Below, piece by piece: positions 29,433 to 39,008 of a stretch of DNA of 64,000 bases. Source of the stretch: a phage. Under the pieces are notes generated by a model. It was not told where the DNA came from, ran no database searches, and saw only the letters and a program-made list of their open reading frames with translations. How positions within the stretch are numbered: the first letter of the stretch is position 1; each line of letters opens with the position of its first letter. Both the position numbers and the translations under genes were made by a program. The stretch lies in the sequence record PZ000613.1. The stretch is one strand, 5' to 3'.

Positions 29433-30629
29433 ATGTTTCCAGTAACATTAGAAGATACTGAAGGTAATGTTTTAACGGTCAACCCCCCTTGTTATGGGTT
29501 CCTTCAACTTCGAAACTATAATGGCGGCGTTGATGAAAATGATGACGAAGATGATGACTACTTCGACCCTAACATGTATGAGGCAACTCATGGATGGAAT
29601 ATGCACGTTCGAGTGTGGCATGAAGAAGCTAACGTTCGTAGTGCTGATGGGGAAGAGTTCCTGTTAAGCCGAGAGATGGATATGTGTAAAATCAAACATA
29701 TCTGGAACTCCGGAACTCACATGAAGATGTTAGGTTTTAGACGTTGGAGTGATGAAAAACCTGTATCCGCAGCTTTAGGTTGGGGTGCAATCGATCATGA
29801 AGGCGAGCTTAAAAATAACATCGAACGTTGGAACGACAAAAACCCTGAACACCGAACCACACCTCGTGCTGTACTGGAAGCTATGGAAGCATTTGTGGAC
29901 AAAGATCGTCCCTCCTGTTTACGCTGGCACGATAAAGGTTTTATGGGGGTAGCAACTGAGAACATCCCTGCTGATCGTTGTCTGTTCTATTTGATGTTAG
30001 ACCGAACCTTCTATTGTGAAGATGAAGAAAGTCAAGTTGAAACCTTCCTCCATAAATGGTTGGTTGAAGGCTGGACAATCCTTCAGGCTTATGTTTACTC
30101 ACGAATGGTTAGCACTTACACTAACCTCTTGGGTGAAACGAAAGCAACTCTGGTTGGTAATGATTGGGATGCTTGTATCTTCCCAGCGTCGCTATTTACA
30201 GTTGGTATGGCTGATAAATACGCTGAAGCATTTCAAGTGCCTTGGCGTCAACAGTCATACAGAGATGGATGCGGTCACTTCCGTGATGAAGACTTTAAGT
30301 GGATCCATTATGAGAATGATGAAACAGCAGAATTACGAGTTAACAACTCAATGTTCTTGCCAGTGATGCACCCCGATCTAGTAAAAGATGGTTCAGAGAT
30401 ACTTAAAGGTGATAATCTTTTGGTTAACTTTACCCGTCGCGTGTCTAAAAATGAGAGAACAGCTAACAAGCTAATCTACGGTATTCGTGCCGAGGCTAAA
30501 GACCTGTTCAACATCTACAACATCATTCAGCGATTTAGTAGTGGAACTCTGGACCAAAGTTCGGAGTATTCAGTGATTCCATCCTCTGAGTGGGATGGTA
30601 TTATGAGCGGATTATTTTTAGGAAAATAA
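29433..30629 (+). CDS. hypothetical protein, first gene of the amidoligase cassette (398 aa)
   Basis: ORF with RBS GAGG; tightly spaced with the downstream cassette genes; no motif recognised. Confidence 0.5.
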   Translation: MFPVTLEDTEGNVLTVNPPCYGFLQLRNYNGGVDENDDEDDDYFDPNMYEATHGWNMHVRVWHEEANVRSADGEEFLLSREMDMCKIKHIWNSGTHMKMLGFRRWSDEKPVSAALGWGAIDHEGELKNNIERWNDKNPEHRTTPRAVLEAMEAFVDKDRPSCLRWHDKGFMGVATENIPADRCLFYLMLDRTFYCEDEESQVETFLHKWLVEGWTILQAYVYSRMVSTYTNLLGETKATLVGNDWDACIFPASLFTVGMADKYAEAFQVPWRQQSYRDGCGHFRDEDFKWIHYENDETAELRVNNSMFLPVMHPDLVKDGSEILKGDNLLVNFTRRVSKNERTANKLIYGIRAEAKDLFNIYNIIQRFSSGTLDQSSEYSVIPSSEWDGIMSGLFLGK

Positions 30630-30639
30630 AAGGTTAGTT

Positions 30640-31611
30640 ATGTCAATCTCCACAACGATCGTACCTCTGAATCTTCAACAAGATTTAGGGGAACAGAAGT
30701 TCTTAGGTCGTGGGTGCTTCGGTATTCACAACTACATGCAAGGCCAATGCGTAATTGATATTAATGGCGAAGTTATCACGGAGGAAGGGCGTTATAGACG
30801 CTTCAACCGTGATATCAACTTGCAATTGGAGATGTTGAATTACTGGACTCACTCTTTTCACGGTCATGTTGCATCTGATATTGAAAAGAACCTGGTTGAA
30901 ACAGCAGACATTATGAACTCTATGTCTTGCTATCGTGACGTATTTACAATCACTTCAGCGAATAGTGTAGCTGTCAACCTCCGTGAGCATCCAGCAGATC
31001 AAATCTTCACAGGACTTATGCTCTTTCGTAGTATTCTGGAAGGGCAATATCGTGGAATGGATTTCCTAGCAGAAGGAATTGAAGACAGGGAAGAGTGGCT
31101 GAAGCGTAAACGCATCGGCATCGCTTTAGTGTTAGCTGGGTTGGGTCGTGACTTCTTCGGTGGATGGTCTCAACGAGGAAGAGCCAATGGGAGTAGTGAG
31201 AGCACATCTATTGTTGTCAACAATAATATGTCAGCAGCAGCCTTCCTTCCTTTGGTTGTAGACTCTGATGAATACACGAAGCAAGTATGGGTTCAAAACC
31301 CCTTCGGTGTTGGCGACAACGAGAATGGTTATGTTCGTAACCATAACCAAGATGCCTTACGAAGATTTGCTCGTGCTAAAGATCAATACCCTGGCGAGTA
31401 TGAAACAATGTCAGAGTGGTTAAGACTCTGGTCCAACTGTCATGGTCACAAACGTGAAGCAATAGACAATAAGTTGGAAAACATTACAGTACAAAACTTT
31501 ACAGCCCGACTAATTCAGCGTACTGGAGCAGATTCCGGTCTTACTCTTGAAGAAGTTGGTAACACAATCTCATCTCTCTTTTCTGAACTAGTGGAGTATT
31601 ACAATGACTAA
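30640..31611 (+). CDS. hypothetical protein in the amidoligase cassette (323 aa)
   Basis: ORF overlapping the downstream amidoligase start; no motif recognised. Confidence 0.5.
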   Translation: MSISTTIVPLNLQQDLGEQKFLGRGCFGIHNYMQGQCVIDINGEVITEEGRYRRFNRDINLQLEMLNYWTHSFHGHVASDIEKNLVETADIMNSMSCYRDVFTITSANSVAVNLREHPADQIFTGLMLFRSILEGQYRGMDFLAEGIEDREEWLKRKRIGIALVLAGLGRDFFGGWSQRGRANGSSESTSIVVNNNMSAAAFLPLVVDSDEYTKQVWVQNPFGVGDNENGYVRNHNQDALRRFARAKDQYPGEYETMSEWLRLWSNCHGHKREAIDNKLENITVQNFTARLIQRTGADSGLTLEEVGNTISSLFSELVEYYND

Positions 31612-32410
31612 GCGCAAATTTCTTATCGGCTCTGACCCTGAAATGTTTGTTCGTACTAGCAACGGTATCATCACCTCTGTAGCCGGTTTATTAGGCTGCT
31701 CTAAGGACGATAAGATCGCTCTGGCTAAGGATGTTCGTCTCCAAGAGGACAACGTACTGGCTGAGTTTGATATTGACCCACAGAGCGGTTTTGAAGCGTT
31801 TAACGATAACATGCAACGTGGTATTGATCTCACCAATAATGTCCTGAACAAACTGGACATGGAAACAGCTCCGGGTGTTAGCTCTCACATCTTCACTGAA
31901 GAAGAGATGAAGACTTTCAATGAATCAGCGTTCATCTTCGGATGTACTCCTGACTTCAACGCTTTCACTGGTCAGAAAAACCCATCCCCAACTTCTCAGA
32001 ACAAGGGACTTCGTACTGCCGGTGGTCACGTACACCTTGGTGTGGTTGGTGCTTTGGATATCACTCTTCAAACTCAGATGATGCTTGGCGTGCTGTGTGA
32101 CTACTTCCTGTCACTCCCAGCAGTAATTATGGACAAAGACACTCGCCGTAAAGAACTCTACGGTAAAGCATCTGCAATCCGTTATAAAGACTATGGTATT
32201 GAATACCGTTCGCTGTCTAACTTCTGGATTAGTGATCGTGAAAACCGTAAGTTTGTTTACGATCAGGTTGACAAGGTTGTTCAGCAGTGTGATATGTCTA
32301 CTCTCATGGCATTGCACTCTCGCCTTCCGATTGAGAAGCTTCATGAAATCATTAACGGTAACAACGTTAAAGAAGCGGACCAGCAGATCAAACTCCTTCA
32401 GGTAGCATAA
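31604..32410 (+). CDS. GCS2/amidoligase-type carboxylate-amine ligase (268 aa)
   Basis: N-terminal LIGSDPEMF (acidic E/D motif) and central GGHVHLG (HVH motif), typical of the glutamine-synthetase-like amidoligase fold. Confidence 0.55.
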   Translation: MTKRKFLIGSDPEMFVRTSNGIITSVAGLLGCSKDDKIALAKDVRLQEDNVLAEFDIDPQSGFEAFNDNMQRGIDLTNNVLNKLDMETAPGVSSHIFTEEEMKTFNESAFIFGCTPDFNAFTGQKNPSPTSQNKGLRTAGGHVHLGVVGALDITLQTQMMLGVLCDYFLSLPAVIMDKDTRRKELYGKASAIRYKDYGIEYRSLSNFWISDRENRKFVYDQVDKVVQQCDMSTLMALHSRLPIEKLHEIINGNNVKEADQQIKLLQVA

Positions 32411-32419
32411 GAGGTTATC

Positions 32420-38142: not shown

Positions 38143-38324
38143 ATAAGTATAAAGTTCTGTTTAAAGACACCAATGCAGCTGGTGAGATGCGAGCAATGGA
38201 CATTGACGCTGACTACTTCAACTCTTATAACAATAAGGTAGAGTTCTGTCAGGATAAAGAAGTTGTTGCTTCTTTTAATGACGAAGTAATCTGCGGTGTA
38301 ATCAAAATCTTTATTACAGAGTGA
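38139..38324 (+). CDS. hypothetical protein (61 aa)
   Basis: ORF overlapping the previous stop. Confidence 0.35.
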   Translation: MNKYKVLFKDTNAAGEMRAMDIDADYFNSYNNKVEFCQDKEVVASFNDEVICGVIKIFITE

Positions 38325-38377
38325 TCTGCTTTAGCCTCTTCGAAAGAGGGGGCTAGTTCGGATAAACTGGAGGTTTT

Positions 38378-38587
38378 ATGAAACATGAAAGATTGAGTAA
38401 AGCCGTTGATTCTGTATGGGATTCTGGGTGTATTATATACCGAGAGCACGACTCATACGGACAAACCAGAATATTGATTCTTAATCCCTTCTGTGAACAG
38501 TTGGGGTTTGAAGTGTTTGTAACAGGAGCCACTGATCAGCAGTGTGCTTACATTGAAAACATCATGAAAGACTGGAAAGGTATTTAA
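38378..38587 (+). CDS. hypothetical protein (69 aa)
   Basis: ORF with RBS GGAGG. Confidence 0.4.
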   Translation: MKHERLSKAVDSVWDSGCIIYREHDSYGQTRILILNPFCEQLGFEVFVTGATDQQCAYIENIMKDWKGI

Positions 38588-38588
38588 A

Positions 38589-39008
38589 ATGTCAGAAGTA
38601 ATTTACGTAGCAACTTATGGTTCTCTTCGTCGCGGTCAAGCTAACTATTTAGTTAATGACCGAGCTGGTGCTAAGTCTATTGGCGAAGGTTGGACTGAAG
38701 ATAACTTCGATCTGTTCCGTTACGGTGGTTCCTACTTCCCGAGCATCTCTCTCGCACACAGCAATAACAATAAGCCTGTTCGTGTAGAAGTGTTTGCTAC
38801 TGACAAAGCAGGTCTGGAAGGTCCGTATGACCGTCTGGAAGGTTACAACAAACATAGCCCTGAAGACAGCTTCTACCAGCGTACTCAGATTGCTGTTAAG
38901 ATGGACTCAGGTGAAACTGTTATCGCTTGGATTTATCATATCGACGAAGAACAAGATGTTCTGGTTGAATCTGGCGACTGGTCAGAGTATCTGAAAAGTG
39001 AATCTTGA
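38589..39008 (+). CDS. gamma-glutamyl cyclotransferase-like (GGCT/AIG2 family) protein (139 aa)
   Basis: N-terminal YVATYGSLRRGQ (YGSL motif) and conserved Glu-containing segment (RLEGY). Confidence 0.55.
   Translation: MSEVIYVATYGSLRRGQANYLVNDRAGAKSIGEGWTEDNFDLFRYGGSYFPSISLAHSNNNKPVRVEVFATDKAGLEGPYDRLEGYNKHSPEDSFYQRTQIAVKMDSGETVIAWIYHIDEEQDVLVESGDWSEYLKSES

Follow-up and report, generated by a model that had tools for sequence, protein, structure and literature searches.

Positions 29,433 to 39,008 of a 64,000-nucleotide stretch of phage DNA (sequence record PZ000613.1; the whole stretch is referred to here as the window) hold a unit of nine genes that is a member of the already described phiEco32-type amidoligase cassette, and not a new system. 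We propose that the block is an early-expressed cytoplasmic module which makes glutamyl amide bonds on an acceptor amine, extends them and later takes them off again, a reading to which we assign a probability of roughly 0.55. To the published description the analysis adds the nine-gene unit itself, a family of paralogous proteins (X), a core partner (u205), an AUU start for the glutamine amidotransferase (GATase), and the alternation of the gamma-glutamyl cyclotransferase (GGCT) with Peptidase_C26. The nine genes encode two X paralogues, a COOH-NH2 ligase (ligase-2), u205, Amidoligase_2, the GATase, a DUF7195 protein, an ATP-grasp ligase and the GGCT. They lie on the same strand with their ends overlapping or nearly abutting. 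The features of the block are as follows.

29433-30629, + strand: X-family protein, paralogue 1; 398 amino acids; phrog_13063
30640-31611, + strand: X-family protein, paralogue 2; 323 amino acids; phrog_13102
31604-32410, + strand: phiEco32-type COOH-NH2 ligase, type 2 (ligase-2); PF14395; phrog_3815
32420-33037, + strand: u205, conserved non-enzymatic core partner; phrog_4877
33034-34137, + strand: Amidoligase_2 carboxylate-amine ligase; PF12224; phrog_7469
34203-34209, + strand: Shine-Dalgarno sequence AGGTGGA for the GATase start at ATT, identified in the sequence itself
34217-36247, + strand: class-II (N-terminal nucleophile, Ntn) GATase or gamma-glutamyl amidohydrolase with Cys-rich C-terminal extension and ATT start; GATase_6
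36250-36483, + strand: DUF7195 small protein; PF23825, 4.7e-17
36464-36688, + strand: 74-amino-acid protein (u74); phrog_13464; Kuravirus and close relatives only
36691-37887, + strand: RimK-clade ATP-grasp ligase with C-terminal extension, assigned by family profile against RimK structures; phrog_2599
37894-38142: homologue of phiEco32 gp79, an RNA-polymerase-binding regulator, assigned by sequence identity to a phage Paul protein
38589-39008, + strand: GGACT/AIG2-type gamma-glutamyl(amine) cyclotransferase (GGCT); PF06094

From end to end, the 9.6-kb region shares 94-96% of its DNA sequence with Escherichia phages IMEP8, Paul, SU10 and NJ01 and with dozens more Kuravirus phages. It was matched by 99 phage records, 66 of which cover at least 80% of the region. 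The identity to Kuravirus phages indicates that the window is most of the genome of a phiEco32-like podophage (Gordonclarkvirinae).

A first-pass annotation of this DNA had assigned five enzyme families from short motifs, and these motifs are present: LIGSDPEMF and GGHVHLG in 31604-32410, GIELELEGSEH and STHVHMD in 33034-34137, CGIVLAGG, FRGQHSSGI, GHSRHATKG, NAHPF and HNGTLMD in 34217-36247, LNFGAVDLI...WVLEVNTAPGL in 36691-37887, and YGSLRRGQ in 38589-39008. All five assignments were borne out, four of them by Pfam profiles and that of the ATP-grasp ligase by a profile built from 24 family members. PHROGs families agreed with the assignment for every cassette gene, and none of the five enzyme families varied in its catalytic residues among 46-81 homologues. 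Chance is far from accounting for the set of assignments.

Ligase-2 matches the Pfam family PF14395 (COOH-NH2_lig; 2.3e-8, 34 bits, cut-off 25), which is named after phiEco32 and bears the full title 'Phage phiEco32-like COOH.NH2 ligase-type 2', and it matches phrog_3815 at 3e-118. Residues D11, E13, D49, E54, H142, H144, R182, R193, K195, E200 and R202 are invariant among 78 homologues. The Amidoligase_2 protein matches PF12224 (4.5e-8, 33.7 bits, cut-off 22) and phrog_7469 (6e-159), with E31, E33, E35, D50, S52, E58, H95, H97, R130, E186 and R188 invariant.

The ATP-grasp protein on its own scored below the cut-off against the Pfam RimK and D-Ala-D-Ala ligase profiles (2e-3; RimK 18.3 bits against 21 required). 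Against the NCBIfam profile rimK_fam it reached 29 bits of the 143 required, and it matched MptN at 5e-8. The 24-member family profile matched Ddl at 1.7e-5 but crystal structures of RimK at 7e-14, along the entire ATP-grasp core; the match to phrog_2599 was 3.5e-186. Residues K85, E157, R159, K173, D229, E241 and N243 are invariant. RimK, MptN and CofF are the closest sequence relatives, sharing the conserved ATP- and Mg-binding residues, and the protein lies nearest to the alpha-L-glutamate ligases RimK and MptN. RimK, MptN and CofF all add alpha-linked glutamate. The phage enzyme differs from RimK in its N-terminal region and in carrying a C-terminal extension. Databases label it 'ribosomal protein S6 glutaminyl transferase', but nothing points to S6 as its substrate. 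Residues 317-398 of the extension match PHROG 20552, which elsewhere is a stand-alone protein of 82 amino acids. In RIO-1 it is ligase-2 that is enlarged, by an N-terminal extension of about 130 residues (L007, 6264-7460). Accessory domains move between the cassette enzymes, as seen at the C terminus of the ATP-grasp ligase and the N terminus of RIO-1 ligase-2. The ten longest variants of the ligases, GATase and ATP-grasp enzyme had no extra Pfam domain, and none of their fusions points to the acceptor.

The GATase matches PF13522 (GATase_6; 1.1e-14, 55 bits, cut-off 27). GATase_6 and GATase_7 pass their Pfam cut-offs and GATase_4 falls below, and the matches are confined to the N-terminal 230 or so residues. 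Invariant among 80 sequences are C2, R29, G30, H84, R86, N111, G112 and D129. By our own reading of a partial alignment with GlmS, C2, R86, N111/G112 and D129 would be the equivalents of GlmS Cys1, Arg73, Asn98/Gly99 and Asp123. In GlmS, glutamine is held by its free alpha-carboxylate and alpha-amine through the Arg, Asn-Gly and Asp of the pocket. An N-terminal Cys nucleophile with this Arg, Asn-Gly and Asp pocket is common to GlmS, PurF, AsnB and the EgtC/YafJ-type amidohydrolases; the best NCBIfam matches were GlmS, PurF and AsnB, and the match to EgtC was weak. Unlike GlmS, PurF and AsnB, the phage protein has no SIS, phosphoribosyltransferase (PRTase) or Asn-synthase domain. Beyond residue 230 or so it has no Pfam, NCBIfam or PDB match, and no known synthase domain is fused to it. 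The C-terminal half is poorly conserved among homologues and often ends in a four-Cys (zinc) ribbon; residues from about 461 to 676, with extra Cys clusters of CxxC type, are specific to Kuravirus and its relatives. The database label 'glutamine-fructose-6-phosphate aminotransferase' is unsupported.

The start of the GATase gene has been misplaced in database records. There is no ATG, GTG or TTG in the open reading frame (ORF) ahead of the catalytic Cys codon (TGT, 34220). The codon before it is ATT, at 34217; an in-frame TAG stands two codons further upstream (34211-34213), and the Shine-Dalgarno sequence AGGTGGA ends 7 nt before the ATT. When 86 GATase homologues were compared, the codon immediately preceding the Cys was a start codon in every one, ATG in 76 and ATT in 10, the latter being spread over at least five lineages. 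A Shine-Dalgarno-like element was found at the same spacing in all 86. Since a start codon precedes the Cys throughout, and each ATT is accompanied by a ribosome-binding site, translation of the GATase most probably begins at AUU, directly before the catalytic Cys, which would become the first residue once the initiator Met is cleaved off. GenBank records of relatives place the start downstream, so that the catalytic Cys is lost; the coding sequence in phage Paul, for instance, is given as 563 amino acids.

The fifth enzyme, the GGCT, matches PF06094 (GGACT; 3.4e-17, 63.6 bits, cut-off 22.8). Its YGSL motif and catalytic Glu are retained, and Y10, G11, L13, E84, Y96 and Y116 are invariant among 46 homologues.

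To place the cassette among phages we assembled 87 loci: 7 were annotated and came from distant isolates, and 80 were viral contigs recovered with the ligase-2 profile. Cassette genes were scored with iterated hidden Markov models (HMMs) built from each window protein, and 52 loci with full flanks were treated as a subset. Amidoligase_2 was present in 87/87 loci (52/52 of those fully flanked), the GATase in 86/87 (52/52), u205 in 83/87 (50/52), the ATP-grasp ligase in 81/87 (52/52), the GGCT in 51/87 (29/52) and DUF7195 in 27/87 (25/52). Amidoligase_2, GATase and ATP-grasp genes adjoin ligase-2 in all 52 well-flanked loci, which agrees with the co-conservation expected in the first-pass annotation, and the Amidoligase_2 and GATase genes are adjacent in 86 of the 87. 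The order across the 87 loci is X (a protein of about 300 amino acids), ligase-2, u205, Amidoligase_2, GATase, in some loci DUF7195, then ATP-grasp and, in some, GGCT. Genes for primase/helicase follow within a few kilobases in most lineages. In the window three small inserted genes, the gp79 homologue and two small ORFs, separate ATP-grasp from GGCT. The product of 37894-38142 shows 100% identity to a protein that the phage Paul annotation gives as the phiEco32 gp79 homologue, and the gene is an unrelated insertion inside the cassette block. GGCT directly follows ATP-grasp in LUZ24 and in many marine or uncultured contigs, and LUZ24 gp14-gp24 mirrors the Kuravirus arrangement gene for gene.

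The cassette was found in Kuravirus, Grimontviridae, Lahexavirus, Bruynoghevirus and Zobellviridae and in about 60 uncultured contigs. The same five families in the same order make up the cassettes of phiEco32, SU10, 7-11/SE131, LUZ24, PaP3, tf, CW02 and RIO-1; nothing essential distinguishes the window locus from these, and it is a member of the type. Ligase-2 occurs in 307 of 50,697 phage isolate records. The hosts listed for these isolates are all Gram-negative, namely Pseudomonas, Escherichia, Vibrio, Aeromonas, Proteus, Salmonella, Cronobacter and Klebsiella. A database of 5.8 billion proteins contained 477 relatives of ligase-2, and among the best 120 of the 477 there was no bacterial name and all lay on contigs of about 190 kb or less. 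The longest among the matches listed, a 189-kb metagenomic contig (L089), carries X, ligase-2, u205, Amidoligase_2, GATase, DUF7195 and ATP-grasp genes, with genes for a porin, TerD, a nucleoside transporter, a NUDIX protein and a DUF8224 protein as neighbours; it may be an unusually large relative.

The GGCT is replaced in part of this set. A gene for a Peptidase_C26 (class-I GATase) lies upstream of ligase-2 in 30 loci, including L006, L030, L036 and L037, which are mostly marine or Zobellviridae-like; the protein matches the gamma-glutamyl hydrolase family at 3e-19, and none of the 30 loci has a member of the X family. Among well-flanked loci the GGCT is found in 1 of 19 with C26 and in 28 of the 33 others (Fisher 1.3e-8, without correction for phylogeny). 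Both GGCT and C26 hydrolases take gamma-glutamyl groups off amines. Their near-exclusive distribution is what one would expect if a gamma-glutamyl group had to be removed and either enzyme could do it. The simplest reading, for which the pattern is supportive and not decisive, is non-orthologous displacement at an obligatory step that removes gamma-glutamate.

The first-pass annotation had grouped the products of 29433, 30640 and 32420 as three unassigned proteins. They are not alike: the first two can be assigned, by their sequences, to fast-evolving paralogues of one new family, X, and the third, u205, is a core member of the cassette. Paralogue 1 has no Pfam or NCBIfam match. An iterated X HMM built from the family of the 30640 protein finds the 29433 protein at 1e-49 and the 30640 protein at 2e-58, and paralogue 1 has the PAD-x8-LxxR and Q...GYxR motifs of the family. 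With this HMM, one or two copies of X were found upstream of ligase-2 in 40 loci, and hhalign ties the Kuravirus, Grimontviridae and marine X clusters together with 92-93% probability. LUZ24 gp14 and gp15 were considered as divergent members, to which hhalign gave a probability of about 1%. Cys26, Phe27, Asp120, Arg130 and Gln219 are invariant, and Tyr231 was so only in the first of the alignments. Compared with the sister genus, X proteins are 42-52% identical (42-46% for the 29433 protein), ligase-2 78-80% and primase/helicase 94-95%. Divergence as fast as this is common among proteins that contact host factors.

The conservation of u205, in contrast to that of X, is on a par with that of the enzymes. 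An AlphaFold2 model of u205 (predicted local distance difference test score, pLDDT, 84; predicted template-modelling score, pTM, 0.73) consists of small beta-barrels, whose fold matches are weak and to generic barrels, mostly RNA- or DNA-binding and not SH3b. The residues kept in at least 89% of 75 sequences (D6, Y11, R106, G111 and G165) are not catalytic-looking, and the C terminus is not conserved. We read u205 as a putative adaptor. The DUF7195 protein, encoded between GATase and ATP-grasp, has two strand-helix units and a C terminus that varies in length and sequence in an alignment from 20 lineages. The 74-amino-acid protein at 36464 was found in 9 loci only and matches no Pfam or NCBIfam family; like u61 and u69, u74 is restricted by lineage.

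Three ATP-dependent carboxylate-amine ligases are present in intact form in the cassette, together with an Ntn enzyme whose L-glutamine/gamma-glutamyl pocket is complete by our reading of the GlmS alignment. Every step of the pathway that we propose comes from the chemistry of the enzyme families. One or both of the ligases of glutamine synthetase/glutamylcysteine synthetase (GS/GCS) type would activate a carboxylate at the expense of ATP (in the simplest case, L-glutamate at its gamma-carboxyl) and join it to an amine, giving a gamma-glutamyl amide in which the alpha-amino and alpha-carboxyl groups are both free. The RimK-type ligase could then add L-glutamate or another amino acid to the free alpha-carboxylate. 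The Ntn enzyme would either hydrolyse the gamma-glutamyl amide or provide ammonia from glutamine, and the GGCT would strip off a gamma-glutamyl group bearing a free alpha-amino group, releasing 5-oxoproline and the amine; in other lineages the C26 hydrolase would strip off gamma-glutamate. The small beta-barrels of u205 and the diverging X proteins may act as specificity or docking factors.

The first-pass annotation had inferred a glutamyl-type tag on a virion protein, a host protein or a small molecule, which is plausible. As to the acceptor, the conserved non-catalytic partners and the barrel and zinc-ribbon appendages speak for something large, either a macromolecule or a bulky precursor, more than for a simple metabolite. 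A peptidoglycan precursor and a protein side chain are tentative candidates of similar standing, a free amine such as a polyamine is a slightly more doubtful one, and a nucleic acid or nucleotide would be a surprising acceptor. Our most daring version of the proposal is a 'writer-extender-eraser' glutamylation of a macromolecule with X and u205 as specificity factors, and at its boldest has phage DNA or nucleotides as the target and the cassette as the cause of restriction resistance in Gordonclarkvirinae; we consider it a long shot. It would agree with the position of the cassette against the replisome genes, with the abundance of the restriction sites tested, and with an annotation that shows neither a known modification pathway nor an anti-restriction one.

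Several observations weigh against glutamyl amide formation and removal as the function of the block. The literature searched demonstrates no substrate, product or phenotype of the cassette. The two GS-like ligases had been annotated together as GCS2-type; this stands by the classification of Pfam and of Iyer, but when the families were compared directly, profile against profile (hhalign), the match was not significant, and sequence and profile searches found no relatives of solved structure for either. Glutamate is named as the activated acid solely from the specificity of the degrading enzymes. The proposed roles of X and u205 are guesses, as neither has a recognisable fold. The statistic for exclusivity of GGCT and C26 ignores shared ancestry, and both genes are present in CW02 and in contig L030. 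Finally, writers and erasers together could equally constitute a linear biosynthetic pathway in which gamma-glutamate is a transient protecting group.

The first-pass annotation stated that comparative genomics describes this combination of phage genes, with no demonstrated substrate, and both points agree with the literature searched. Its description of the published prediction as amino-acid or peptide tagging in general is inaccurate, because the sources specifically describe modification of the cell wall, or peptidoglycan, against superinfection. In four papers (PMC5498523, PMC11945000, PMC10580990, PMC11318856), which cite Iyer 2009 (Mol Biosyst) and Hardies 2013 (J Virol), the genes are termed a putative 'peptidoglycan modification cassette' or 'module' that would alter the wall after infection and so block superinfection, and the cassette is listed for RIO-1, phiEco32, 7-11, PA11, tf, MR299-2, LUZ24, PaP3 and CW02. 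The papers on the tf, UFV-P2 and Privateer genomes go no further than naming the genes. In the full-text literature, where the content of Iyer 2009 and Hardies 2013 was represented second-hand, no test of the cassette by biochemistry or genetics was found. Two published data sets touch on its expression and evolution. Mass spectrometry of SU10 placed the ATP-grasp protein, the GATase and the YtfP-like cyclotransferase among the 'early gene products' (PMC4281155). Directed evolution of a LUZ24-like phage gave variants, after 15 and 30 rounds, that each have missense changes in the genes for the amidoligase and the GATase, at different positions (PMC11450229).

According to the published hypothesis, the enzymes rebuild or decorate stem peptides or cytoplasmic precursors, making the wall resistant to superinfecting phages; the gamma-Glu linkage, the amine or carboxylate of meso-diaminopimelate (mDAP), and D-Ala-D-Ala-like bonds are candidate sites. 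Besides being stated in the four papers above, it agrees with the Gram-negative, mDAP-type walls of every listed host of ligase-2 isolates. ATP-grasp ligases and amidotransferases also have precedents on wall precursors in Ddl, the D-Asp ligase Aslfm, MurT/GatD and AsnB1/LtsA. Against it, the literature offered no supporting experiment, and no Pfam wall-binding domain (LysM, SH3b, PG_binding) was detected in the cassette proteins or the longest variants scanned; the barrel matches of u205 are likewise generic and not to SH3b. The Ntn pocket and the GGCT require an L-gamma-glutamyl group with a free alpha-amine, whereas the stem peptide contains D-isoglutamate acylated by L-Ala, and the genes are placed with replication genes and not with lysis genes. 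We consider this function unlikely.

A second alternative makes the Ntn domain a true glutaminase that feeds ammonia to Amidoligase_2, which would amidate a carboxylate activated by ATP, much as MurT/GatD or asparagine synthetase does, the GGCT having a separate role. The near-constant adjacency of the Amidoligase_2 and GATase genes, the retention of all class-II glutamine-binding and catalytic residues, and the GlmS, PurF and AsnB matches are as this arrangement would require. The same residues, however, are common to EgtC-type hydrolases, to which there is a weak match; no known synthase or acceptor domain is fused to the poorly conserved C-terminal region; and the alternation of GGCT with C26 points to cleavage of gamma-glutamyl amides as the recurring theme. 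The likelihood of an ammonia-feeding pair is in our view also low.

A third possibility is that a free amine (putrescine, spermidine or cadaverine) is gamma-glutamylated and further acylated, and thereby sequestered, detoxified or re-routed, or, as a variant, that a peptide-like metabolite is made with gamma-Glu as a removable protecting group. The enzyme set parallels gamma-glutamyl-amine metabolism, in which PuuA and PuuD of E. coli, PauA and PauD of Pseudomonas and mammalian GGACT likewise combine an ATP-dependent GS-like ligase with a C26 hydrolase or a cyclotransferase, and Peptidase_C26 is present in 30 cassette loci. In butirosin biosynthesis the ATP-grasp ligase BtrJ installs a gamma-glutamyl group that the GGCT-fold enzyme BtrG later removes as 5-oxoproline, a precedent for the protecting-group logic. 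The likeness has limits. The phage ligases lie outside the GlnA/PuuA family and match only PF12224 and PF14395. The cassette lacks the oxidative steps of gamma-glutamyl-amine metabolism, and has three ligases and non-enzymatic partners. It also lacks the carrier protein and aminoglycoside genes of the butirosin pathway, with which homology is at the level of fold family, so that the analogy is one of logic only. No oxidoreductase, decarboxylase or transporter is present in the cluster, and u205, X, DUF7195, the zinc-ribbon extensions and the barrels fused to ligases (at the N terminus of RIO-1 ligase-2 and the C terminus of the Kuravirus ATP-grasp protein) are found more typically where the substrate is a macromolecule. 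We regard a small-molecule pathway as quite unlikely.

Nucleic acid was also considered as the substrate, with the cassette building an amino-acid-type modification on phage DNA or nucleotides that would account for the resistance of Gordonclarkvirinae to restriction-modification. BASEL 2025 reports this resistance as unexplained, and its authors suspect the downstream dCTP deaminase and nucleotidyltransferase of a role in DNA modification. The window contains 33 EcoRV, 10 EcoRI, 5 EcoKI and 84 EcoP1I sites, so that avoidance of these sites is not the explanation. Also in favour are the position of the cassette next to primase/helicase genes in most lineages, the mostly RNA- or DNA-binding barrels among the weak fold matches of u205, and the co-occurrence of amidoligase and amidotransferase genes with thymidine-hypermodification genes in viromes (PMC8989533). 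The large downstream ORFs that were scanned encode an ordinary ThyX (1.4e-43), a nucleotidyltransferase with a PolyA_pol head domain, dCTP deaminase, a ferritin-like protein, PhoH, an HNH endonuclease, a family-A DNA polymerase and a 5'-3' exonuclease. No hydroxymethylase, 5-hmdU kinase, aGPT-Pplase, DpdA or glycosyltransferase was found among these large ORFs, and so no counterpart of the enzymes (dUMP/dCMP hydroxymethylase, 5-hmdU DNA kinase, aGPT-Pplase) that mark the thymidine and cytidine hypermodification clusters of Lee et al. 2018 and 2021; the annotation of Bas91 lists no base-modification enzyme. To our knowledge there is no precedent for carboxylate-amine ligases acting on DNA. DNA of a LUZ24-like phage bearing the cassette was cut by 11 of 16 restriction enzymes (PMC11945000). 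A known DNA-hypermodification pathway is thus not supported, the downstream genes scanned lacking a known initiating enzyme and LUZ24-like DNA being largely cuttable, and we regard a nucleic-acid function as very unlikely.

Other restriction sites in the window deviate from expectation. Observed and expected numbers are 5 and 78 for CCWGG, 0 and 15 for PstI, 0 and 7 for KpnI, 1 and 10 for BamHI, and 153 and 254 for GATC, all depleted; EcoRV (33 and 15) and CAGCAG (67 and 30) are enriched.

A Pup- or ubiquitin-like system, in which the GS-like ligases would join a small protein, made on ribosomes from a gene of the block, to targets through its C terminus, has in its favour that PafA, which ligates Pup, and the deamidase Dop are members of the same carboxylate-amine ligase superfamily and that small ORFs lie within the block at 36250, 36464, 38139 and 38378, but it is largely refuted and exceedingly improbable, since DUF7195 (36250), which the first-pass annotation had included among the candidate partners or substrates and which is the sole small protein kept beyond Kuravirus, has a variable C terminus with no conserved tag end of Gly-Gly-Gln/Glu type, the other small ORFs are restricted by lineage, and u205 has an unconserved C terminus and neither Lys nor Glu among its near-invariant residues.

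The cassette is bordered upstream by an array of tandem co-directional ORFs of about 80 amino acids (26967-28669), at least four of which are paralogues by BLASTP (26967 against 27218, 5e-9; 27705 against 28418, 5e-5; 26967 against 28418, 0.03). The C-terminal domain of the ATP-grasp ligase gave no BLAST signal against these small ORFs. A terminator-like hairpin lies at 28860-28886 (GGCTCTTTTCGGAGAGTC then CTTTTTTAAA), some 550 nt ahead of the gene that opens the cassette; it is at the 3' edge of the array and may mark the boundary of a transcription unit. On the other side of the cassette, directly downstream of the primase/helicase and exonuclease genes, the PolyA_pol-head (CCA-adding-like) nucleotidyltransferase is encoded at 41511-42908. 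Further downstream are the genes for dCTP deaminase (42921-43454), the ferritin-like protein (44620-45231) and ThyX (46173-46829).

About 300 sequenced phage isolates carry the cassette, among them LUZ24-like Pseudomonas phages and Kuravirus coliphages in use or under proposal for therapy, as do many marine podophages, and it makes up roughly 10% of these phage genomes and is expressed early. The corrected GATase model, with its ATT start, restores a catalytic Cys that most GenBank records omit, and the parts list extended by X, u205 and DUF7195 is needed for any reconstitution. The alternation of GGCT and C26 points to gamma-glutamyl removal as an obligatory step. The cassette was first described in 2009, about 17 years ago; the identity of its substrate would reveal a new chemistry of host takeover and might explain phenotypes such as superinfection exclusion or the restriction resistance of Gordonclarkvirinae.

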